Shown: in pieces, positions 1 to 12,416 of the stretch
Numbering within the stretch: position 1 is the stretch's first letter
Layout: the number at the start of each line of letters is the position of its first letter
IMG/VR virus record: IMGVR_UViG_3300025723_001543
Span: 29,307-93,306 of that record
DNA from: a virus
Lineage: Duplodnaviria > Heunggongvirae > Uroviricota > Caudoviricetes
Strand: one strand, 5' to 3'
DNA length: 64,000 nt
The notes under the pieces: generated by a model
Seen by the model: the letters and a program-made list of their open reading frames with translations, nothing else
Databases searched by the model: none
What the model was told of the DNA's origin: nothing
Program-made: the position numbers and the translations under genes

Positions 1-210
1 ATATGGAAAATGTTGTTTGCGCCAGTAGTTTTTATCATCACATGCGATTACCATATCACCAAATTTGTTTCCAAATTGTTGTCTATAGCTACGAAGTGAA
101 TTTAGAACCATGTGTCTGAACAATCCCTCATCAATAGGGATGTTTGTGTGGTTTCCAAGTTGCATCATCAAATTCGAGATCATGACTTGATTGAAGTCAA
201 TAATAATCAT
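1..210 (-). CDS. rnh: T4-like RNase H / 5'-3' exonuclease, N-terminal part (runs off the left edge of the window)
   Basis: Not in the ORF track. Manual translation from ATG at 210 gives MIIIDFNQVMISNLMMQLGNHTNIPIDEGLFRHMVLNSLRSYRQQFGNKFGDMVIACDDKNYWRKQHFPY, which has the T4 RNase H N-terminal motifs (xDFNQ, RHMVLNS, ACD..NYWR..FPY). Confidence 0.93.
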   Translation of the reverse strand, partial: MIIIDFNQVMISNLMMQLGNHTNIPIDEGLFRHMVLNSLRSYRQQFGNKFGDMVIACDDKNYWRKQHFPY

Positions 211-243
211 TTACTGTTGTCCATACATTATATATGTGTATCT

Positions 244-606
244 TTATTGCGGATTCAAGGACTCTTCAATTTTTTCTTCAAGCTCACGCTCAATTTCTTC
301 AGAAATAGTAACTGTCTTATCGATCAAAGAATGCATAGGATGATCTATGTTCTTCATTCTATATAGCATTGCCTGTAAAACTTCTTCAAAGAAAAATGCA
401 TCACGGATAAATTCTGGAGAAGACTTTGGAACCAAACCATAGTTGCTAATAATAGCAAACACTGCTTGGAAAACATCATCAGCAATTTCATCACAAAAAA
501 TCTTTCTCACTTCTTCAATCTGAGTGATTGTTTCTTCGAGTGAAGCTGGATTACCAACTTCACTTTTCTTTTTCTTATCTGGAAACTGTATAATTTTGTT
601 TGTCAT
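244..606 (-). CDS. Hypothetical protein (120 aa), typical of T4-like genes next to rnh
   Basis: ORF co-oriented and tightly packed with neighbours; GAGGTG ribosome-binding site (RBS) upstream. Confidence 0.75.
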   Translation of the reverse strand: MTNKIIQFPDKKKKSEVGNPASLEETITQIEEVRKIFCDEIADDVFQAVFAIISNYGLVPKSSPEFIRDAFFFEEVLQAMLYRMKNIDHPMHSLIDKTVTISEEIERELEEKIEESLNPQ

Positions 607-609
607 TTT

Positions 610-1731
610 TCACCTCACCACTTTCAATAGGATCGTACTACTATTTAGGCGGTCAACAAATTTGAGTTGATCGGTGTTGATGGTATCAAACAATTTCCTG
701 AGAGCTACCTTACCAGAAGAAGTCACTAACTTAAGAATTTCATCAGTCTTACGTCCAATCTTCTTAGACATAGAGGTATCAGCATCATATCCACCAATTG
801 CGGTGCGATTGACTTCTAGACCAGCTGGACCTCTTGCACGGAACACAGAGAGCACTTTGCTCTTCGTATTGTAGGTCCACAGTTCCTGTGCTCCCAAGAC
901 ACTCTCAGGATTGACAGAGGAGATTTTGAGCGATGTATCCTCCTTCTGGTACTGAAAGACCTTAAGCTTCTTCGCTGGGCTCACAGCCTTCTTCTTACGA
1001 GGCTTACGAGCTTTGCGGAGATTGCCACTGTGTTTATCGCAGTCATCCACGATACCAGTGTACAGAACAAGCTTTGCCTTCATCTGAGGCTTGGTGAAGG
1101 TGCTATATGCCTCTACCAGCTGCGGGTCTTTTTTGGCAATTGCATCAGCAATCTCTTGCTGAATGGGACGATAATAGTCAGCCACCCGTGTCGAGAGCGA
1201 AGCAGGGAAGTTGTTGCTCTGGAGGGAGGAATACATCGAGAAATCGATTGCACCACCATCAATGATGGCTTCGATCTCGCCAATGAATTCAGAGACCTTA
1301 TTGGCCATATGATCCTGAACCGAAAGACGAACCACATTGTCGTCTTTCTTTTCCTGTTCTGCATACTTCATGCAGTCGAAGATGCTATCCTTTGCACGAT
1401 CAAGCATTTCCTGATCGACAGGTCCGCCCCGACTATAGATACGAACCACAGCTGCGGCAGTGCGAGGAATACGCACGAGAGGAACACGAGCGAACTTCTT
1501 GACTTCCCCATCAGCCTTGACAGACTTGAGATAGTCATTGATGTAGAGGCGAAGCTCTTCCTCTTCCGCCATCGTGTTATACCAGTTGAAGGCATTGTAG
1601 ACGAACTTGTATCCATCTTCGCCCCAAGTTGGCTCATCGCCATAGTACTTTTTGTTGATGTAGAAACTTTCGCCCTTGGTGACACGTATCACCTTCTTCT
1701 TGGTAGCGATTGTCGCAGCTCTTTTAGCCAT
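610..1731 (-). CDS. Conserved T4-like hypothetical protein (373 aa), basic termini
   Basis: Long ORF with strong C-ending codon bias, its own sigma70 promoter and a GGAG RBS. Confidence 0.85.
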   Translation of the reverse strand: MAKRAATIATKKKVIRVTKGESFYINKKYYGDEPTWGEDGYKFVYNAFNWYNTMAEEEELRLYINDYLKSVKADGEVKKFARVPLVRIPRTAAAVVRIYSRGGPVDQEMLDRAKDSIFDCMKYAEQEKKDDNVVRLSVQDHMANKVSEFIGEIEAIIDGGAIDFSMYSSLQSNNFPASLSTRVADYYRPIQQEIADAIAKKDPQLVEAYSTFTKPQMKAKLVLYTGIVDDCDKHSGNLRKARKPRKKKAVSPAKKLKVFQYQKEDTSLKISSVNPESVLGAQELWTYNTKSKVLSVFRARGPAGLEVNRTAIGGYDADTSMSKKIGRKTDEILKLVTSSGKVALRKLFDTINTDQLKFVDRLNSSTILLKVVR

Positions 1732-1758
1732 GTGGCTATCTCCGTTGTTGATGTACTC

Positions 1759-1786
1759 ATTATAGTCATTATGTAGGCAGTGTCAA
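1759..1786 (-). promoter_or_regulatory. Sigma70-like early promoter for the 373-aa gene
   Basis: Minus strand reads TTGACA-N16-TATAAT, with an A/T-rich upstream tract. Confidence 0.8.
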
Positions 1787-1830
1787 CCAAAAAAATCGAC
1801 AATTTTCTTCTTTTTTAATAAAAAAAGATG

Positions 1831-1858
1831 TTGACCCTAAAGCTGGTTGTGATAATAT
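1831..1858 (+). promoter_or_regulatory. Sigma70-like early promoter, divergent partner of the 1759-1786 promoter
   Basis: TTGACC-N16-TAATAT preceded by an A-tract. Confidence 0.7.
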
Positions 1859-1885
1859 CTTTATATCGGATCACGGAGTTGACCA

Positions 1886-2107
1886 ATGACCAACCTCAAT
1901 GCATGGCTCGAAACAATCGTCGGTCTCAAGACTGAAAAGGGTGCCATGAAGCGTCTGGAGAATTGCCTTGAGACCATCAAGGAGAATGGCTCCAAGTACA
2001 TGATCTACCGCAAGATGGATGGAACTTTTGTTCCTCTGGTCATTGCTTCCAGCAAGGATTGGGCAGTTGGTGCTTATGCCCACAAAGGTATTTGCGTCAC
2101 AAACTGA
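1886..2107 (+). CDS. Early hypothetical protein (73 aa)
   Basis: GGAG RBS, directly downstream of the promoter, biased codon usage. Confidence 0.8.
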   Translation: MTNLNAWLETIVGLKTEKGAMKRLENCLETIKENGSKYMIYRKMDGTFVPLVIASSKDWAVGAYAHKGICVTN

Positions 2108-2116
2108 AAATAGGTG

Positions 2117-2152
2117 TTGACAGGGGGGAAACCCCCTGTTACATTGAATCAT
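2117..2152 (+). promoter_or_regulatory. Sigma70-like promoter with a GAAA-tetraloop hairpin in the spacer
   Basis: TTGACA-N17-TACATT followed by GAATCAT; ACAGGGGG-GAAA-CCCCCTGT at 2120-2139. Confidence 0.8.
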
Positions 2153-2169
2153 CAAAACGGAGATGAGAC

Positions 2170-2346
2170 ATGTTCACCGTCACCTACACCTACTTCAAGA
2201 GCTACAAGCACGAAAAGTCCTTCAAGACCTATCAGGCTGCTAAAGGTTTCTTCAATGTCATCAGCCGCAAGGCTAACGTGACACAGACAGAAATCCGTGC
2301 TGTCAGCGACAAGAACCCTTCTATGAACTCTAAACTGTTCGCATAA
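2170..2346 (+). CDS. Early hypothetical protein (58 aa; below the ORF-track cutoff)
   Basis: GGAG RBS; translation MFTVTYTYFKSYKHEKSFKTYQAAKGFFNVISRKANVTQTEIRAVSDKNPSMNSKLFA; fills the gap between promoter and next gene. Confidence 0.8.
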   Translation: MFTVTYTYFKSYKHEKSFKTYQAAKGFFNVISRKANVTQTEIRAVSDKNPSMNSKLFA

Positions 2347-2356
2347 GGAGATTTCT

Positions 2357-2551
2357 ATGGTCAAGCTTGTGAACATCTCAAACATCTACGCCTACAACGT
2401 CATTGGGCTCTACGAGACCTATGATGCTGCGATTGAGTACGCCAAGACCTACCTGTACGCTTTTGCCTTCGAAGAGGACAAGGATAACCTTGGCTTTTAC
2501 GATGGTATCACCACCAATGGTATGCAACTCGTCATCGAACCCGTAAAGTAG
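2357..2551 (+). CDS. Early hypothetical protein (64 aa)
   Basis: AAGGAG RBS; C-ending codon bias. Confidence 0.8.
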   Translation: MVKLVNISNIYAYNVIGLYETYDAAIEYAKTYLYAFAFEEDKDNLGFYDGITTNGMQLVIEPVK

Positions 2552-2560
2552 GAGATAAAT

Positions 2561-2788
2561 ATGACTAGTGATCAAATCGACACCAAGGTTGACAATCTTG
2601 TTACACTTCTCCAACTAAATGGAGATATGTACACCATTGGCTACCTGATATCTTTCATCAAGTCCAATGCCTATTTCATGGACACGGATCATCTAGAAAA
2701 CTTCAGAAGCCGCCTTGAGTATCACACATCAAAGGCGATTCAAAGGATAGGAGAAAATGCGAAATCTGACAGCAAAATCCCTGTCTGA
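2561..2788 (+). CDS. Early hypothetical protein (75 aa)
   Basis: AGGAG RBS; operon packing. Confidence 0.75.
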   Translation: MTSDQIDTKVDNLVTLLQLNGDMYTIGYLISFIKSNAYFMDTDHLENFRSRLEYHTSKAIQRIGENAKSDSKIPV

Positions 2789-2873
2789 ACGCCAGTTTCA
2801 GCAAAAAATTGTTGCTCCCAAGAAGGGTAAGGGAGCATATACAAGGAAAATCAAGCACTTAGAGAGGGGATAA
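2757..2873 (+). CDS. arfA: ArfA-like alternative ribosome-rescue factor (38 aa; below the ORF-track cutoff)
   Basis: AGGAGA RBS; translation MRNLTAKSLSERQFQQKIVAPKKGKGAYTRKIKHLERG. The motif F.Q(K/R)(I/V)...KKGKG(A/S)Y.RK.KH matches the ArfA core. Confidence 0.8.
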   Translation: MRNLTAKSLSERQFQQKIVAPKKGKGAYTRKIKHLERG

Positions 2874-2888
2874 TTCCCCTCTTTTTTT
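2863..2888 (+). terminator. Rho-independent terminator with the arfA-like stop codon in its loop
   Basis: AGAGGGGA-TAAT-TCCCCTCT followed by a T-run. Confidence 0.85.
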
Positions 2889-2898
2889 ATATAAACGC

Positions 2899-2933
2899 TT
2901 GACTCTTCCTATAGGGATGCTAATATGAATCAT
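2899..2933 (+). promoter_or_regulatory. Sigma70-like early promoter
   Basis: TTGACT-N16-TAATAT with TG extension, followed by GAATCAT; CCTATAGG palindrome in the spacer. Confidence 0.8.
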
Positions 2934-2950
2934 AGACAAAGGAGATGGAC

Positions 2951-3193
2951 ATGGGTTATCTGGCAACTGAATCTCAGGCTGATCTGGAATATTCCCGCAA
3001 TGTAGGCTTCGACAATCAGGATAGGGCTTGGATTCTCTCTGATCGTGACGTTTGGTATCCTAACCCCTTCTACACTGGTCCTAAGCAGCCTCATCCAGAA
3101 GATGATCATTATGAGGATGATGATCAGGCTTACGAGAATTCTCCGGTTTTTGCTATCGCCACCTATGACAATGATCAAGAAATTCCTTTCTGA
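2951..3193 (+). CDS. Early acidic hypothetical protein (about 80 aa)
   Basis: AAAGGAG RBS best fits ATG at 2951 (ORF track start 2945); D/E-rich, ends in EIPF. Confidence 0.8.
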   Translation: MGYLATESQADLEYSRNVGFDNQDRAWILSDRDVWYPNPFYTGPKQPHPEDDHYEDDDQAYENSPVFAIATYDNDQEIPF

Positions 3194-3203
3194 GGAGAGA
3201 AAA

Positions 3204-3404
3204 ATGACCAAAGTCATCAGACTCCCAAACTCTACGAAACTCCAGTCTAAGATGCTCAACTACATTCTCAGAGTCATAAATGACAAAGGTAAAGTGGTTG
3301 AAGCTTGGCAATACGAAGGCTACTCTGGTCATGCCATGTGGGATGTAGAATCCGACTATAAAACTCTTTTTCCCAAGGAAAGCGGCTACACCATTGACTG
3401 GTAG
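3204..3404 (+). CDS. Early hypothetical protein (66 aa)
   Basis: GAGGAG RBS before ATG at 3204, in frame with track ORF 3045..3404. Confidence 0.7.
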   Translation: MTKVIRLPNSTKLQSKMLNYILRVINDKGKVVEAWQYEGYSGHAMWDVESDYKTLFPKESGYTIDW

Positions 3405-3427
3405 GAGAGAAATCTCCTACTTTTTTT
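3401..3427 (+). terminator. Rho-independent terminator
   Basis: GTAGGAGA-GAAA-TCTCCTAC followed by T7; overlaps the TAG stop. Confidence 0.88.
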
Positions 3428-3440
3428 ATGAAATAAACAG

Positions 3441-3475
3441 TTGACGACATCTGTCAGTATGCTAATATGAATCAT
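3441..3475 (+). promoter_or_regulatory. Sigma70-like early promoter
   Basis: TTGACG-N16-TAATAT followed by GAATCAT; shares ATGCTAATATGAATCAT with the 2899 promoter. Confidence 0.8.
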
Positions 3476-3494
3476 GAACAGAGGAGATGCGGAC

Positions 3495-3677
3495 ATGACT
3501 TCACTTGACGAACGCATGAACGAGGGTATCGACCGGCTGATCGCTCGGCTTGAAGAGATTAAAGCTCGTAAAGGTTTATACTCGACAAAGGCATATGAGG
3601 TTGCTGCAGTGGCGCTTGATGCCAAGAACTACGCCGACTACTGGGAATACAAGCTCACTGACTGGGCTAACGACTGA
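3495..3677 (+). CDS. Early hypothetical protein (60 aa)
   Basis: GAGGAG RBS favours ATG at 3495; the track start (3474) lies within the promoter. Confidence 0.75.
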   Translation: MTSLDERMNEGIDRLIARLEEIKARKGLYSTKAYEVAAVALDAKNYADYWEYKLTDWAND

Positions 3678-3682
3678 GGAGA

Positions 3683-3955
3683 ATGAACATGTCTCAGATA
3701 GACACCGAAACCACTACTTGGAATAAAGTCATGTCAGCCCCTCTTTTTGTTGAGGGATTTAAAGATGCCATGACTGGTGTTTCTTTTTATGAAAAGCACG
3801 ATAAAATGTCAGATTGGCAACAATATCCATATGAGCGTGGAAGACATTTCTTTTTTGCTCTTGGATACTCGATAAAGATCAAACAGGGTAGAGGAATATC
3901 CAAACTAGCATTGGGATGGTTTCGATATTTTTATACAAATAAAATTATTCTATAG
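3683..3955 (+). CDS. Hypothetical protein (90 aa)
   Basis: GAGGAG RBS; operon packing. Confidence 0.7.
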   Translation: MNMSQIDTETTTWNKVMSAPLFVEGFKDAMTGVSFYEKHDKMSDWQQYPYERGRHFFFALGYSIKIKQGRGISKLALGWFRYFYTNKIIL

Positions 3956-3964
3956 GAGGTTAAT

Positions 3965-4135
3965 ATGGAAATCGTTGACAATTATCGTCTTGATGATATA
4001 TCTGGGAGAATAAACTCTCTCAGAAAAAGAATTCAAGCACTCAAGAAAGTTATGAACGAAGCAAACAAGAATACAGAATTCTTCTTTGAAAAGGAACCTA
4101 TCAATGACTCTTACCACAAAACAGCAAAAGTTTAA
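3965..4135 (+). CDS. Small coiled-coil hypothetical protein (56 aa; below cutoff)
   Basis: AGGAGG RBS; translation MEIVDNYRLDDISGRINSLRKRIQALKKVMNEANKNTEFFFEKEPINDSYHKTAKV. Confidence 0.7.
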   Translation: MEIVDNYRLDDISGRINSLRKRIQALKKVMNEANKNTEFFFEKEPINDSYHKTAKV

Positions 4136-4355
4136 GGATACATATCTCGAAAGCCTGATGGAATGTATCCAAAAGTATCCAAATGATTATTGTTATGGGA
4201 TTGATGAAGCTGTAACAGTATGCGATAAAATGTTCATTGCATTCATGCGTCATTCTGCAAATAAAGATGGAAAAGCTGTAAAAAATACGTGTAAGAAACT
4301 TGGAATTCCTTACACGTATAAAGGTATTGGGGAATATCTTGGAGTTAATTACTAA
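4104..4355 (+). CDS. Hypothetical protein (83 aa)
   Basis: AAGGAA RBS before ATG at 4104, in frame with track ORF 4086..4355. Confidence 0.7.
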   Translation: MTLTTKQQKFKDTYLESLMECIQKYPNDYCYGIDEAVTVCDKMFIAFMRHSANKDGKAVKNTCKKLGIPYTYKGIGEYLGVNY

Positions 4356-5283
4356 TCAAACTAGTGAGTAAATTTTCCCATTCGGTTTTCCTCTTATGCC
4401 ACCCATAAAAATAATCAAAGTATTGTTTCTGGAAGTCTAGATATGGGTCTAGACTTCCATCATTTTTTTGTACATTCACGATTGCATTGCTGAGTGTATG
4501 AGCAAACTGAAGTGCATGATGGTTCTTGTTCTCATTGTATGGATACATCATAGCAAACCCAGCACAGGTTTCTGGAAGACCAGCAAAGTTAGGACACACA
4601 ACGATATTTTTTGCAGATAAAGCCTCGATAGCAGCGAGACAACTTGTCTCAGGCCAAATAGAAGGATAAGCAAAGATATGCGAACGAACAAGAGCTTCAC
4701 GAATTTCTTCGTTAGAAACTGATCCATGATATGTAATTTTTTCATTTGACCTACAACGATCAAATAATTCCTTATATTGGTCGTCCCTTTGCTCCCAACC
4801 ATAAATCTTGAATGAAGAATATACATCAAGATGAATATTATCAAACATTTTGCATAGTTCTTCAAAGACAGGAACAAGAATTTCTAATCCACGATGTGGT
4901 GTTGTATGATAAATCAGACGAACTGTACCATCATACACTTTTTTCTCTACAGGAATAGGCTCAATTGCATTCTTGATGACCATACATTCCTGATAAGGAA
5001 GACCAGAAGTAAGATTGTATAACTGCATTTGCCAATCAGACACACAAACAATCTTATCAAACCTCTTTCTAGAAGAAGCATCTGTCAAATGTTCTGATTC
5101 TGGATCATTGGGCAGATCGTGCAACCAAAGAATCTTCTTCTTATCAGGATCAAGGTCTCTGACACGAGAAGGAATTATTTGAAATTGATTGAGAAGATCA
5201 GGAGATAATGAACTATGCAATCTTTCTTGCATGAGTTCTGTGCCGCCACGGGCGTTTTGGTTTAATTCATTCTTTTCCATCAC
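4345..5283 (-). CDS. GT-B fold glycosyltransferase (GT4-like)
   Basis: Motifs GGTE, LWLHD, YHTTPHRGLE and YPSIWPETSCLAAIEA (the E-x7-E type GT4 signature). Confidence 0.88.
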   Translation of the reverse strand: MMEKNELNQNARGGTELMQERLHSSLSPDLLNQFQIIPSRVRDLDPDKKKILWLHDLPNDPESEHLTDASSRKRFDKIVCVSDWQMQLYNLTSGLPYQECMVIKNAIEPIPVEKKVYDGTVRLIYHTTPHRGLEILVPVFEELCKMFDNIHLDVYSSFKIYGWEQRDDQYKELFDRCRSNEKITYHGSVSNEEIREALVRSHIFAYPSIWPETSCLAAIEALSAKNIVVCPNFAGLPETCAGFAMMYPYNENKNHHALQFAHTLSNAIVNVQKNDGSLDPYLDFQKQYFDYFYGWHKRKTEWENLLTSLISN

Positions 5284-5309
5284 AGTATCCTCATAATAAT
5301 TTAAAAATT

Positions 5310-5645
5310 TTATTCTTTTGTCTTGATAAAACTTGGTAGAGTTATTTCAGTTTTTTCATCTTGAATTTTTAAAAGCATTCTTGCACACAATGTTAAGATA
5401 CTCCAAGCACAAAATCCAATCAAAGCACCAGAAAGAAGAATATTATCATTTGACATAGGTAAATTATAATATTCAATTCCAGGGATTGATCCTATAATTG
5501 CTGTAGCTGTACTTACGCTAGAACGTATAGCAGCATCCCACACATTTTTAGGTCTATAAAATGCCATGAACGTAGCTCCACCAACAAAGCCTCCAACACC
5601 AGATAAAATTTTTCCTATCATAGGAGTTATAATAAAATCGGACAT
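5310..5645 (-). CDS. Small multi-transmembrane protein, possibly a holin
   Basis: Two to three hydrophobic segments and a charged C-terminus; start at MSDF (5645) avoids overlap with the glutaredoxin. Confidence 0.55.
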   Translation of the reverse strand: MSDFIITPMIGKILSGVGGFVGGATFMAFYRPKNVWDAAIRSSVSTATAIIGSIPGIEYYNLPMSNDNILLSGALIGFCAWSILTLCARMLLKIQDEKTEITLPSFIKTKE

Positions 5646-5688
5646 TGGAAAACTTTCTGTTTTGTTTCGTATAACATATTTATATTTT

Positions 5689-5934
5689 TTAAAAATTGTC
5701 GTCTTTGCCGGTAGTTTCTTCGATATATATTTCAAGATCGTTGAATCCACCAATAGCTACATCATTATTTAGGATGTATGGGGCGCTCTTTACGTTAGGA
5801 TATTGTGCAATAAATTCGTTTACTCCAATATCTTCTCCGATAGTCAAATATGTGAATGGAATCTTCTTCAACTCAAGAAGATTCTTTGCCTTAGTACAAT
5901 ACCCACAATTATGTTTTCCGTATACGGTAATCAT
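5689..5934 (-). CDS. nrdC: Glutaredoxin (NrdC-like)
   Basis: MITVYGKHNCGYCTKAK with CxxC, cis-Pro region SAPYI and IGGF motif; lies near nrdAB. Confidence 0.9.
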   Translation of the reverse strand: MITVYGKHNCGYCTKAKNLLELKKIPFTYLTIGEDIGVNEFIAQYPNVKSAPYILNNDVAIGGFNDLEIYIEETTGKDDNF

Positions 5935-6200
5935 GCGCCAATTTCCTTGATAGCTCTCTTCCAAGGACCAAATGCACGAGGATCATTACCTTCAATCCGA
6001 ATGAACTTTTTATTTGTCTCATTCTTGTTTGGATTCTCAACTGTAATCATGGTACGCTTCCCCTTGCTCCACATCTTTAACTGACGAAGCAAAGTTGTTC
6101 CTGCAGTAACATCTCTACGAACTGAATTGCTAGTCTTTCTTGAAATTGTTGGCTGGCTACCGCTAGAAGTATACCCTGCTCTTGTCTTCTTCTTACCCAT
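5931..6200 (-). CDS. Basic hypothetical protein (89 aa)
   Basis: Operon packing with an ATGA-type overlap. Confidence 0.75.
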   Translation of the reverse strand: MGKKKTRAGYTSSGSQPTISRKTSNSVRRDVTAGTTLLRQLKMWSKGKRTMITVENPNKNETNKKFIRIEGNDPRAFGPWKRAIKEIGA

Positions 6201-6206
6201 AATATA

Positions 6207-6434
6207 TCACCTTTCCGCTAATGAACTTACTGTTGTCTCATATGTAGTTTCACAGACAATGCATTTCATATATACAGTGCCTTTTGTACTAGTAAAAAAA
6301 TTTTGAATGAAGTCTGTGATTATCAAACTTCTGGTTCCAATTTGACATGAGGGACATTCACCAACTACGGACATGACCCCCATATCATTTATGACACGTA
6401 TTGGTTTATTACTTCTTCTTGGTATTTCGAACAA
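6207..6434 (-). CDS. Small Zn-ribbon protein
   Basis: CPSC...CIVC motif. Confidence 0.65.
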   Translation of the reverse strand: MFEIPRRSNKPIRVINDMGVMSVVGECPSCQIGTRSLIITDFIQNFFTSTKGTVYMKCIVCETTYETTVSSLAER

Positions 6435-6795
6435 CTGTTTTCTTTACCTTTTCAGCTACCTGATTGACTTCTTCTTCAGCCTTCTTGACTGTCTTCTTTG
6501 CCTTTGTAGCTACCTTCTTAACTTCCTGCTTTACTTCTTCTTCAACCTTAGCAACTTCAACCTTGATCTCTTCTTCGATCTTAGCGACTACGGTTTCTAC
6601 CTTGGCTTCAATAGTCTTAGCAAGCTCTACAGTTGCTTCCTTTGTTTCAGCAACAATAGCAGTTTCAACCTTAGTAATAGCATCTTCAAACTTCTTGACT
6701 TCTTGCTTGATTTCTTCTTCTACAACCTTCTTAGTTCTAGGCCAAATTAACCAACCAATAATACCAAAAGCAATTAATACAACAAACAATTCCAT
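6409..6795 (-). CDS. Membrane-anchored protein with an E/K/V/A-rich low-complexity tail
   Basis: N-terminal transmembrane segment LFVVLIAFGIIGWLIW, then repetitive EEEIK/KVEEEV/KKTVKK. Confidence 0.8.
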   Translation of the reverse strand: MELFVVLIAFGIIGWLIWPRTKKVVEEEIKQEVKKFEDAITKVETAIVAETKEATVELAKTIEAKVETVVAKIEEEIKVEVAKVEEEVKQEVKKVATKAKKTVKKAEEEVNQVAEKVKKTVVRNTKKK

Positions 6796-6807
6796 TTTAT
6801 CATCTCC

Positions 6808-7221
6808 TCATATATTTTTCAAGTGTGCCTTATGCACTTTAACTTGTATCCAACAATTATAAAAATCTTCACTTTCCAAAACTTTTAGGTCAAATTGATA
6901 TTTCGCTTCGAAATAATTGCACTCACCTTTTGTTTTACAAAGACGAAGTATTTCTCGTTTAAAGTTTGATGCACCCACTTGAGCAACATCTTCTTGTAGT
7001 TCTTTATTGGAACCATAATATGTTTTCCAATCAGATTCTACCAGACTTCTTTTCTTTTTTCCCTTAACTTGTTTTGTCTTGGTCTTTTTAAGAAGCTTCT
7101 TACCTATATATCTTCTGTTATTAGTAAGGTTTGTAATTTGATATACAAACCCAACATAATTATCAATTATATCGGATTCAATTATTGTAGAATCATGTAA
7201 CCACGGATTTTCATAAGACAT
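6808..7221 (-). CDS. denA: GIY-YIG nuclease, T4 endonuclease II-like
   Basis: GFVY...YIGKK, W..YYGS..EL and REIL motifs; short, with no NUMOD tail. Confidence 0.8.
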   Translation of the reverse strand: MSYENPWLHDSTIIESDIIDNYVGFVYQITNLTNNRRYIGKKLLKKTKTKQVKGKKKRSLVESDWKTYYGSNKELQEDVAQVGASNFKREILRLCKTKGECNYFEAKYQFDLKVLESEDFYNCWIQVKVHKAHLKNI

Positions 7222-7249
7222 ATAGGGTTCTCCTTCAACCCTATTTAGT
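7222..7249 (-). promoter_or_regulatory. Late-type promoter variant (ACTAAATA) plus RBS hairpin upstream of the denA-like gene
   Basis: ATAGGGTT-GAAGGAG-AACCCTAT stem on the minus strand immediately before the ATG; ACTAAATA at 7242-7249. Confidence 0.6.
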
Positions 7250-7256
7250 TGTACTG

Positions 7257-7421
7257 TTATGGGTCTATTGCACCATCATCATCATCGTCATACCAATCAC
7301 CATCATCTTCATATCTTAACTTTGAACCACAAAATGGACAAAATTCTGGGTCTGTGATGTTATCATGTATAACTTGAAATTCTGCTTCACACTCGCTACA
7401 TGTAATTTCCTTATCGCTCAT
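7257..7421 (-). CDS. Zn-ribbon protein with an acidic tail (54 aa; below cutoff)
   Basis: Translation MSDKEITCSECEAEFQVIHDNITDPEFCPFCGSKLRYEDDGDWYDDDDGAIDP; AGGAG RBS. Confidence 0.8.
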   Translation of the reverse strand: MSDKEITCSECEAEFQVIHDNITDPEFCPFCGSKLRYEDDGDWYDDDDDGAIDP

Positions 7422-7431
7422 TATTCTCTCC

Positions 7432-7776
7432 TTAACAAGTAACTTTAATTTGGGTTGGACATTGCGGGTTATTGCATACGAATGACATAGCTTTATTTAG
7501 TTCGCTGCCCATACCACAAACGCTGCAACCTTGATACACAGTCGGTGGCCAAAGATTAGTTGTTCTTGGATAATCTCTTGGCCATTGAATGTCCATTGTT
7601 TGTGCTGGTTTGGTTGTATCAGGAACGTAAGTGTTATCTTTATGAAACTCTTGCTTTGCTGCTTCCCAACCAGCTTTGAAACCAAGTTCATAAGGAGACG
7701 GTGGCGCAAACTCTGACATAAATTTAACACAACGCTCCATAAGCGCATCATACTTATGTTTGTAATTTTCAGTCAT
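7432..7776 (-). CDS. Hypothetical protein with C-terminal Cys motifs
   Basis: CSVC...CNNPQCP; operon packing. Confidence 0.75.
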   Translation of the reverse strand: MTENYKHKYDALMERCVKFMSEFAPPSPYELGFKAGWEAAKQEFHKDNTYVPDTTKPAQTMDIQWPRDYPRTTNLWPPTVYQGCSVCGMGSELNKAMSFVCNNPQCPTQIKVTC

Positions 7777-7990
7777 CTTTTCCCTCCAATGCTTTGCGGG
7801 CGATTACGATGCGTTCAGACAATATCTGCGCAATGTTGAGCGTGTTGATCACAGAACTCTTTGACCATTCAATTTCATATTCTTCTGCTACCTTAACCAA
7901 CGCTGCCTCCAACTCCCTAATGCGGTCGGCGGCCTCATCTAGCTCGGCAATTCCTTCATTGCGCAGCCGCTTCACAAGATCATCAGTCAT
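7769..7990 (-). CDS. Hypothetical phage protein (DDLVKRLR...ADRIRELE type)
   Basis: Common small phage coiled-coil motif; overlapping start/stop codons. Confidence 0.75.
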   Translation of the reverse strand: MTDDLVKRLRNEGIAELDEAADRIRELEAALVKVAEEYEIEWSKSSVINTLNIAQILSERIVIARKALEGKDD

Positions 7991-8214
7991 TCAGGCACCT
8001 TTAGCTTTGCATCTTGCATCATGCGGGCGGCAATCAGGTCAGAAGATGACGGGGCGCAGTTGTTCATCTCGCACCATTGATGGTATGCGGCCAGCCATTT
8101 GGCATCATCCTTTGTGACCGACTCCAGCTTTTCGATGCGGTTGTTCAGTCGAACATTTTCTTTAGCAACAGCTTCAGCAAATTGTTCAACTGGCATTTCA
8201 AGTTTATCAATCAT
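7987..8214 (-). CDS. Hypothetical protein sharing its N-terminus with the upstream gene
   Basis: Start MIDKLEMPVEQFAEAVAKEN at 8214, overlapping the upstream stop. Confidence 0.7.
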   Translation of the reverse strand: MIDKLEMPVEQFAEAVAKENVRLNNRIEKLESVTKDDAKWLAAYHQWCEMNNCAPSSSDLIAARMMQDAKLKVPE

Positions 8215-10885: not shown

Positions 10886-11238
10886 CACAACCCCTCTCCA
10901 TGTTCGCAATCAATCTCGACACGGACGCAGGCAACACGAGAAGCACCTGCATGTCCATCCGCTTTTTCTCTAGTATCAAATAGGTCTAGAGTCCAGTTGC
11001 TCGATGGATATAAGTTTACCCAATATGACCGCTTGATACGAGGGCGGACTTCGATGAGGTCAACGCAGCTTTCATCGTTAACGTAAAGAACGCCACTTTT
11101 AGTCCACGATGTCGATTCCCATCCTCCATTAAGCCGTATTGCGCCATGAACAGGAAATAGGCCCCCACCATCCGTCGCATAGATGCGGACTTCATTGCCA
11201 TCACGGGTGCGATACTTTTTGTTAATATCAATCATCAC
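10885..11238 (-). CDS. Hypothetical phage protein (KYRTRDG.EVRIYATDG type), locally GC-rich
   Basis: Long ORF with overlapping start/stop codons. Confidence 0.8.
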   Translation of the reverse strand: MMIDINKKYRTRDGNEVRIYATDGGGLFPVHGAIRLNGGWESTSWTKSGVLYVNDESCVDLIEVRPRIKRSYWVNLYPSSNWTLDLFDTREKADGHAGASRVACVRVEIDCEHGEGL

Positions 11239-11432
11239 TTATCTCCAATCTCACTGAGAGCATATTCATGACATTGCTTCATACGAATCTGTTGCATGAT
11301 ACCAAAAGGTGTATACTCATTAATGTGTTTGTCTACGCCCATCAACTTATCGTGATGCTTCTGTAGCGTATCAAGCACAACATCATAATCTGGTTCGTCG
11401 TCAGTATCTGCGGTAGTAGAATCGTTTGTCAT
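11235..11432 (-). CDS. Hypothetical protein (about 65 aa)
   Basis: Likely start MTND at 11432 within track ORF 11235..11480. Confidence 0.6.
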   Translation of the reverse strand: MTNDSTTADTDDEPDYDVVLDTLQKHHDKLMGVDKHINEYTPFGIMQQIRMKQCHEYALSEIGDK

Positions 11433-11593: not shown

Positions 11594-11845
11594 TTATTCC
11601 GCCCAAAGTTCAACACCTAATGAAACCATTCTCATTGCAATTTCTCTATTCTTATGATCTGAACCATAAACACCACATTGAGCAATAATACCAGAATCTT
11701 TATGTGTAACACGAATATCATGAGATGGAATACCTACCTGTTGCCCTGTAGGTTTCTCTGTTGACCAAGTATCACGATATATAAGTTCTACTTTATATTG
11801 ATTACTAATTGTATCTCTTATATTTCCATTTATATCCGTAGGCAT
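11594..11845 (-). CDS. Stand-alone peptide-release-factor domain-3-like protein with TGQ replacing GGQ
   Basis: DTWSTEKPTGQQVG..HDIRVTHKDSGIIAQCGVYGSDHKNREIAMRMV resembles the RF1/RF2 segment [47 protein letters not shown]. Confidence 0.7.
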   Translation of the reverse strand: MPTDINGNIRDTISNQYKVELIYRDTWSTEKPTGQQVGIPSHDIRVTHKDSGIIAQCGVYGSDHKNREIAMRMVSLGVELWAE

Positions 11846-12416
11846 GTTTAAATTTACCTTCTATTGTATATTTAATGTTTGATGCATTACCATTTACACT
11901 TTTTGCAGCTGCTGACAAAGATTCATATTCTTCTAAAAATACACCGTCTATTGTATACTTTTCTACTGGTCTTAGCAAATTATTTTTTGCCCATTCATCC
12001 CATCCAGCTTTGGTTTTTTCCATATTTTCCTTTGTATGTTTTTTACCAAGCATTCCTTTTGGGTGTGGTTTTTCTTGCCATCTAGTTTTTAATCTTTGTA
12101 TGTTTTGCTCTTGATATATTGGATCATTGTTTATAAATTCAAATCCACCACCAACCTTTGCTTTCATATTATAAAACATTTTGTTGTTAGCAGCATCATA
12201 AAAATCAATATAGTATTGTTCTCTTTCTCTAAGAATTACATTATCTTCAACTGATTCTAATATAACTCTATCAAAATTATCAATACCATACTTTTCTATT
12301 GCTCTATTGAAAGCCTTACCAGAACCAAGATAATTATCATTCTCAGTTCCAATATGGCTTCCAATATATTGCTTGTTATTTATTTTATTAGTCCAAATAT
12401 AAACGAATCCAGCCAT
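11805..12416 (-). mobile_element. Free-standing GIY-YIG homing endonuclease (Seg-like, NUMOD1-type C-terminus) downstream of nrdA-b
   Basis: GFVYIWTNKINNKQYIGSH, YLGSG, YN motifs; EEYESLSAAAK helix-turn-helix tail. Confidence 0.9.

Follow-up and report, generated by a model that had tools for sequence, protein, structure and literature searches.

The stretch of DNA analysed here (the window; 64 000 nucleotides) belongs to a 157-kb T4-like IMG/VR genome of an uncultured marine phage, the capsid protein of which is closest to those of Stenotrophomonas phage DLP_6, Melnitz, the pelagimyophage Mosig and the group of Sinorhizobium phage phiM12. At positions 2757–2873 of its plus strand (stop codon included) lies a gene encoding 38 amino acids, here called mini-ArfA, identified from its match to the Pfam family ArfA, PDB matches and third-position variation. 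The frame is opened by the first start codon to follow an in-frame stop and is preceded by a ribosome-binding site, AGGAGA (2749–2754, plus strand), which ends two bases 5′ of the ATG and is located in the 3′ end of an upstream ORF of 75 amino acids (2561–2788); the end of this upstream ORF overlaps the first 32 nt of the mini-ArfA frame. A preliminary description made from the sequence alone had picked out this product and its AGGAGA site, and both were recovered as described. The same ORF occupies the same place in five related IMG/VR contigs (L021, L028, L041, L044 and L078), and GGAG is found at the same position in L021, L028, L044 and L078, i.e. the ribosome-binding site is conserved.

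Third codon positions account for 10 of the 14 variable columns among these five relatives, and for 10 of the 12 variable sites within codons 1–35 (binomial p = 5e-4). Only the mini-ArfA frame fits this variation, since the variable positions are first or second positions of two antisense ORFs. Two first-position changes in the tail (E36K and R37G) both fall within the stem of an intrinsic terminator (2861–2891, plus strand; from folding and conservation), which is composed of a 10-bp stem, a loop of 4 nt that contains the TAA stop codon (2871–2873) and a T run, exactly where the preliminary description had placed the stop. The 5′ arm of the hairpin (2861–2884) consists of the last three sense codons of mini-ArfA, and its folding energy (−16.4 kcal/mol; z = −4.2) was equalled by none of 200 shuffled sequences. 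The terminator is kept in the five relatives, with one compensatory pair (AU to GC) coinciding with the R37G codon change; together with the third-position bias, this compensatory change in the stem argues that both peptide and hairpin are under selection. An exact look-up of the 38-amino-acid product in the public collection found no called gene product, and a megablast of the mini-ArfA neighbourhood against cultured phages gave no match. The ORF at 2757–2873 is a real, conserved, coding phage gene, homologous to ArfA residues 12–49.

Mini-ArfA is the last of five small plus-strand ORFs behind a sigma-70-type promoter-like site (TTGACC, 16 nt with TG, TAATAT; 1831–1858, plus strand) at the head of this small-gene operon. 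A further site (TTGACT, 16 nt with TG, TAATAT; 2899–2926, plus strand), conserved downstream in the relatives, starts the following cassette, and a third, near-identical one (TTGAC-x, 16 nt with TG, TAATAT) is present at 3441; those at 2899 and 3441 each come directly after a terminator (at 2861 and 3400 respectively). These promoter-like sites are consensus matches only, and their count in the region is not above that in shuffled sequences. Between window positions 1831 and 3470, promoter-like sites are interleaved with terminators, giving compact one-operon cassettes of small genes. With its promoters predicted from consensus, this cassette layout is that of the early region in T4-like phages, and the location of mini-ArfA in a block of sigma-70-type promoter/terminator cassettes typical of early genes agrees, on these consensus matches, with its earlier designation as an early gene. 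No Rfam family matched within positions 1–8000 of the window.

Homology to ArfA and a shortened front half

The protein scored 31.9 bits against Pfam ArfA (PF03889; gathering cut-off 25.5 bits; E = 8.9e-8), and 30 bits in a six-frame search of the genome, with the match spanning protein residues 13–34 and only positions 22–43 of the 44 in the model. The sole PDB sequence matches were E. coli ArfA chains from 70S–ArfA–RF2 structures, in which residues 20–49 aligned without gaps to phage residues 9–38. Against an Escherichia ArfA read from contig L118 the alignment was likewise ungapped, phage M1 falling on K12, with 16 of 36 identities over N14–G49 and 16 of 38 over K12–G49; the gap-free E. coli alignment with about 16 of 36 identities in the preliminary description was thus exact, as was its caveat that a lysine occupies the A18 position. 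We also compared two profile alignments, one of 15 viral proteins with an Asn 19 residues before KKGKG (A3) and one of 27 classic bacterial ArfAs (A2). In hhalign these matched with a probability of 98.7% (E = 1.7e-16), residues 3–37 pairing with residues 14–48 without a gap, so that the homology reaches through the short ArfA helix, beyond the basic tail. With a Pfam score above cut-off, PDB matches to ArfA only and this profile alignment, the product is an ArfA homologue, as first proposed.

Codons 22–34 (2820–2858, plus strand) encode the basic tail motif KKGKG-x-Y-x-RK-x-KH, seen in the Pfam and PDB matches, a motif scan and the alignments. All 11 of its fixed residues are present, and they are invariant in the 27 bacterial and 15 viral sequences. 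The 13-residue motif is far beyond chance, its back-translated pattern (approximately 46 bits) having retrieved, in 84 IMG/VR viral contigs, only small ArfA-like ORFs, always with their own stop. In E. coli, the ArfA tail fills the empty mRNA tunnel, and F25–E30 lie in the A site beside RF2 domain 2; in the PDB and Escherichia alignments the latter residues correspond to codons 14–19 of the phage gene (F-Q-Q-K-I-V; 2796–2813, plus strand). Codons 3–13 (2763–2795, plus strand) align with the short ArfA helix (E. coli residues 14–24), and we infer for them the role described for that helix (PMC8012679; PMC5378476). The mid-region (residues 21–30) and short helix (15–24) are in register with the tail, N14, L20, F25 and Q27 being identical, and R28 and V29 conservatively replaced, in the phage protein. 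The phage clade conserves N3, A6 and L9, while the only feature of the N-terminal half common to all viral families is [IV][IV] at −4/−3.

In E. coli ArfA, residues 2–16 are disordered when RF2 is closed and fold into a minidomain as RF2 opens (PMC5378476; PMC8012679). Residues 1–11 fold back, with T7 and K8 touching h44 and the first residues touching S12 (PMC5378476), A18 packs between C1914 and I11, and L19, L24 and F25 hold Trp319 of the RF2 switch loop (PMC5378476; PMC8012679); in the A18T variant RF2 is still bound and recruited, but no hydrolysis follows (PMC8012679). The phage protein, with an in-frame stop upstream of its start, has no equivalent of residues 1–11 (the fold-back segment with G9 and I11), and the equivalents of A18, L19, L24 and F25 are K7, S8, Q13 and F14, i.e. 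F25 alone is kept of the RF2-contacting patch. Across the 27 aligned classic ArfAs, G9 and A18 never vary, and I11 and L19 hardly do; a wider ungapped tally of 113 bacterial copies gave Ala at position 18 in 104. Of the four N-terminal-half residues that are invariant or almost invariant in classic ArfAs, three (G9, I11 and A18) are lost in the phage protein; L19 is a Ser. Across the viral copies these positions are not conserved. A Pseudomonas-like bacterial ArfA (L211) likewise has no G9/I11 segment.

At the other end, the protein stops four residues after KH, at the point up to which E. coli ArfA is ordered and active (medians after KH: 6 amino acids in viral and 24.5 in bacterial copies). 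It has no hydrophobic destabilizing C-terminal extension, and no long hydrophobic tail is found in the viral copies. The view that the protein ends right after the functional core was therefore accurate. The wording ‘pre-trimmed to the active core’ fits the C-terminus but not the protein as a whole, since residues 1–11 are absent too and the chain begins at the K12 equivalent. Several phage lineages (e.g. L005/L047 and Ralstonia phage RsoM2USA) and many metagenomic clusters have the same very short M-[KR]-N start, a recurrence that points to a stable design rather than a decayed copy; in Pelagibacter phage HTVC034P the copy is longer by only three residues at its N-terminus.

Other endings and front halves were also seen. 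Bacterial ArfAs of the Alteromonadales/Vibrionales type (L105, L123, L140, L151, L174 and others) have approximately 10 residues after KH and end in E-S-Y-L-I-A-A or similar; the resemblance of this ending to the LAA end of the ssrA tag suggests a different way of keeping ArfA low. A viral family with the ArfA tail (L004, L013, L019, L066 and relatives) has a front half, E-E-L-Q-x-Y-L-x-F, unrelated to that of ArfA, ends in the degron-like F-D-F-P-A-C-A or M-V-L-V-A and scores 22 bits, below the Pfam cut-off.

Phage relatives, hosts and genome context

A profile of the window's clade retrieved 725 clusters at E ≤ 0.001 among 1.84 billion representatives, the median length being approximately 50 amino acids among the best 150 of these 725. 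Mini-ArfA belongs to a group of phage ORFs of approximately 35–60 amino acids with an N-x-x-A-[KR]-x-L helix, an Asn 19 residues before KKGKG, their own stop and a short tail, and all of these features are present in the window's copy. The 15 aligned members share invariant N3 and A6 in addition to the tail. Cultured carriers of ArfA-like ORFs are phages of Caulobacter, Brevundimonas, Erythrobacter, Citromicrobium, Roseobacter, Pelagibacter, Ochrobactrum, Ralstonia and Microcystis. They mostly infect Alphaproteobacteria; a restriction to this class was considered and dropped because of the Ralstonia and Microcystis phages. In a published survey, arfA was found in none of 2376 alphaproteobacterial genomes (PMC11633108), and in our searches the ArfA model had no match in a Caulobacter control genome even at E ≤ 10. 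ArfA was present in 37 of 400 sampled Pseudomonadota genomes, all classes being counted together.

Some of the phage copies are unannotated. Caulobacter phage Cr30 has an ArfA-like ORF (L208:2447–2599; KF301602.1, approximately 11139–11291) that scores 27.2 bits, above the Pfam cut-off, and lies between a GMP reductase gene and two RNA ligase genes. A second case of an ArfA-like gene beside RNA-repair genes is a metagenomic phage-like contig (L226, L227; 4657–8123), in which a 40-amino-acid ArfA-like gene is located approximately 0.8 kb downstream of an Rnl-type RNA ligase and RtcB; neither RNA ligase nor RtcB was found in the window's genome. The 40-amino-acid ORF of Ralstonia phage RsoM2USA (L223:301–420; MG752970.1; 25.7 bits) is also unannotated, the record MG752970.1 having instead a hypothetical CDS (RsoM2USA_176) that covers it on the other strand. 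Some phage ArfA-like proteins (L003:3263–3406 and L208:2447–2596) also matched Pfam DUF7230 weakly (PF23876; scores of 19.7 and 15.5 bits against a cut-off of 27), a family that may be an uncharacterized relative of the phage ArfA-like peptides.

The genome that contains the window also encodes a permuted two-piece tmRNA with the tag ANDNALIETRLAA (G000:C1:116754–117121, minus strand, outside the window), and no SmpB gene was found in it. An 83-amino-acid ORF on the minus strand (window positions 11594–11845) is similar to domain 3 of release factors, its GGQ motif being replaced by TGQ; it scored 27 bits against Pfam RF-1, below the cut-off of 35, and its best PDB matches were to RF2 residues 235–286 (E = 2e-4). 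A close relative of this phage, genome G406, has an alpha-type tmRNA (128 bits) and, weakly, the same release factor-like domain. We considered, and rejected, the idea that ArfA-like genes travel with the small release factor-like gene or a phage tmRNA: of ten other large ArfA-bearing phage genomes only G406 has either, and it has both. Elsewhere in the window, two minus-strand ORFs (6808–7221 and 11805–12416) begin in a GIY-YIG-like manner (G-F-V-Y … Y-I-G) and, by eye, have the look of homing endonucleases.

Expected synthesis and proposed role on the ribosome

Bacterial arfA and brfA mRNAs are cut or terminated before the stop codon, so that the product appears only when trans-translation fails (PMC8012679). 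The mini-ArfA stop lies approximately 20 nt upstream of the expected 3′ end of the transcript. With an ordinary stop codon of its own, located before the end of the transcript, the gene should escape gating by trans-translation and yield its peptide upon every transcription of the operon, unlike that of bacterial ArfA. A layout for non-stop synthesis, with the terminator ending before the stop, was found in none of 67 dereplicated viral loci; in the same 67 loci the stop codon in the terminator loop proved to be confined to the window's clade, and was rejected as a regulatory design of the whole family. The preliminary description had called the factor constitutive and tmRNA-independent: the own stop codon agrees with the first term, while the second needs a qualifier since the same phage genome encodes a permuted tmRNA. 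For a homologue, gp30 of phage HTVC027P, early and late transcription has been reported (PMC12753301).

Our preferred reading, which we hold with moderate confidence, is that the ORF is a genuine, probably early phage gene for a minimal ArfA homologue that rescues non-stop ribosomes via host RF2. From the sequence, both tunnel binding by the peptide and RF2-dependent rescue appear likely. On ribosomes stalled at the 3′ ends of broken mRNAs, the basic tail (codons 22–34) would thread into the unoccupied mRNA tunnel, with the hydrophobic stretch and short helix before it sitting in the A site against host RF2; RF2 would then hydrolyse the peptidyl-tRNA and free the ribosome for phage mRNAs. Such a factor is probably needed while host mRNA is being broken down or RNA-cutting defences are active, in hosts that have few ribosomes, and the phage's own tmRNA would work in parallel.

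A complex prediction for the peptide with Caulobacter RF2 (used as a stand-in) scored 0.39 against 0.00 for the best of three controls, with runs agreeing in at least 82% of contacts and a partner pLDDT of at least 59. Of 78 solved complexes, 51 reached the mark, against 2 of 108 mismatched pairs; with a score of 0.60 or below, only 5 of those 78 solved complexes reached it, as did all 4 mismatches that passed. The prediction thus lends weak support to the pairing, and may reflect memory of a likeness since ArfA–RF2 complexes have already been solved.

The main rival explanation is that the peptide binds the empty tunnel without activating RF2, either holding RF2 closed as ArfA(A18T) does or occupying the tunnel and so modulating or blocking host rescue (tmRNA–SmpB, ArfB) or ribosome use. 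The loss or change of the RF2-opening parts (no residues 1–11, A18 to Lys, L19 to Ser and L24 to Gln; PMC5378476; PMC8012679) is what this would lead one to expect, as are the widely different front halves of the viral families, which share only the tail and the [IV][IV] pair; moreover, tmRNA and ArfB, on which the known hosts of cultured carriers mostly rely, also require this tunnel (PMC11633108). A tunnel blocker would, however, harm a phage that encodes its own tmRNA, as this one does without an SmpB. The helix region, conserved in the clade (N3, A6 and L9) and in register with the ArfA helix, suggests that a partner surface has been retained and, since BrfA opens and activates RF2 with an unrelated N-terminus (PMC8012679), a missing E. 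coli-type minidomain does not settle the matter. On balance we judge a non-activating role to be unlikely.

The catalytic partner might also be one other than host RF2, namely RF1, ArfB or the phage's 83-amino-acid release-factor domain, the last giving a two-part ArfB-like system. The presence in the same genome of a protein resembling release-factor domain 3, the joint occurrence of such a domain and an ArfA-like gene in G406, and the ability of ArfT to use RF1 or RF2 (PMC8012679) all lend this some credit. It is nonetheless improbable: 9 of the 10 other large phage genomes with an ArfA-like gene gave no RF-1 domain match, a distance of 9 kb separates the two genes, which are on opposite strands, and the small release factor-like protein has neither domain 2 nor domain 4 (the docking sites of ArfA) and has the first Gly of GGQ replaced. 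As for a chance open frame or an untranslated, decayed remnant, as might be suspected of a very short ORF that overlaps its upstream neighbour by 32 nt and is not among the called gene products of the public collection, this is close to refuted by the Pfam score above cut-off, the third-position variation in this frame only, the conserved ribosome-binding site and the existence of hundreds of related small ORFs.

ArfA has been described as confined to some beta- and gammaproteobacteria, where it is a back-up kept off by trans-translation. We find hundreds of phage ORFs that combine the tunnel-sensing tail with a shortened front half and a normal stop, mainly in phages of bacteria without arfA. 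More tentatively, and with less than even confidence, we suggest that phage mini-ArfAs are portable rescue factors which activate the RF2 of hosts that never had ArfA (Alphaproteobacteria, possibly cyanobacteria) by a design of approximately 38 residues with neither the N-terminal minidomain nor A18, and which, made constitutively and early, recover ribosomes stranded by mRNA decay or RNA-cutting defences. Were this suggestion true, RF2 could be opened on a codon-less ribosome in a second, minimal manner. The specificity of ArfA and BrfA for the RF2 of their own species (PMC8012679) counts against the rescue reading. If the peptides do rescue ribosomes, phages import a rescue pathway into their hosts, stalling on broken mRNA is a bottleneck of infection, especially in slow-growing marine hosts, and a natural minimal ArfA is at hand for defining what RF2 activation needs. 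If they do not activate RF2, they would form a new class of phage ribosome binders.

Comparison with known rescue systems

The closest known system is bacterial ArfA (YhdL, PF03889; gamma- and betaproteobacteria; E. coli structures 5U4I, 5MDV, 5H5U and 5MGP), with which the phage protein shares the KKGKG-x-Y-x-RK-x-KH tail and the identical spacing of this tail to the hydrophobic stretch, the short helix and the conserved Asn (N3 = N14). Unlike ArfA, it has no residues 1–11, carries Lys for A18 and retains only F25 of the L19/L24/F25 patch; its gene has an ordinary stop instead of non-stop mRNA control, and the product lacks the hydrophobic C-terminal tail. It is, moreover, encoded by a phage, and the carriers of its family mostly infect hosts without arfA.

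A few phage ORFs have been annotated as ArfA, i.e. g10 of Citromicrobium phage RXM (PMC8953757), gp30 of Pelagibacter phage HTVC027P (PMC12753301; 20.2 bits, below the Pfam ArfA cut-off) and an ORF of Brevundimonas phage Kikimora (GenBank). RXM g10 and HTVC027P gp30 were named as such in passing, in one or two sentences (PMC8953757; PMC12753301), and our literature search found no functional or comparative study of phage ArfA copies. Like mini-ArfA, these are small genes that combine the ArfA tail with a helix of the N-P-[IV]-A-[KR] type, but they have 18–25 extra N-terminal residues, whereas the window's copy is of the shortest (M-R-N start) form and, unlike them, is accompanied by a phage tmRNA in the same genome.

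BrfA (Bacillus subtilis) and ArfT (Francisella) are also small, basic sensors of the empty tunnel that recruit a class I release factor, and illustrate that differing N-terminal solutions can activate RF2; they have no detectable sequence relationship to the phage protein, and brfA is a non-stop gene gated by trans-translation. The two-piece tmRNA of phages (Melnitz and the pelagimyophages; PMC9004378) is likewise a rescue component of marine T4-like phages but, unlike mini-ArfA, it is an RNA that depends on SmpB from the host and marks the peptide for degradation. It is present with an ArfA-like gene in the window's genome and in G406, with no such co-occurrence in nine other large phage genomes.
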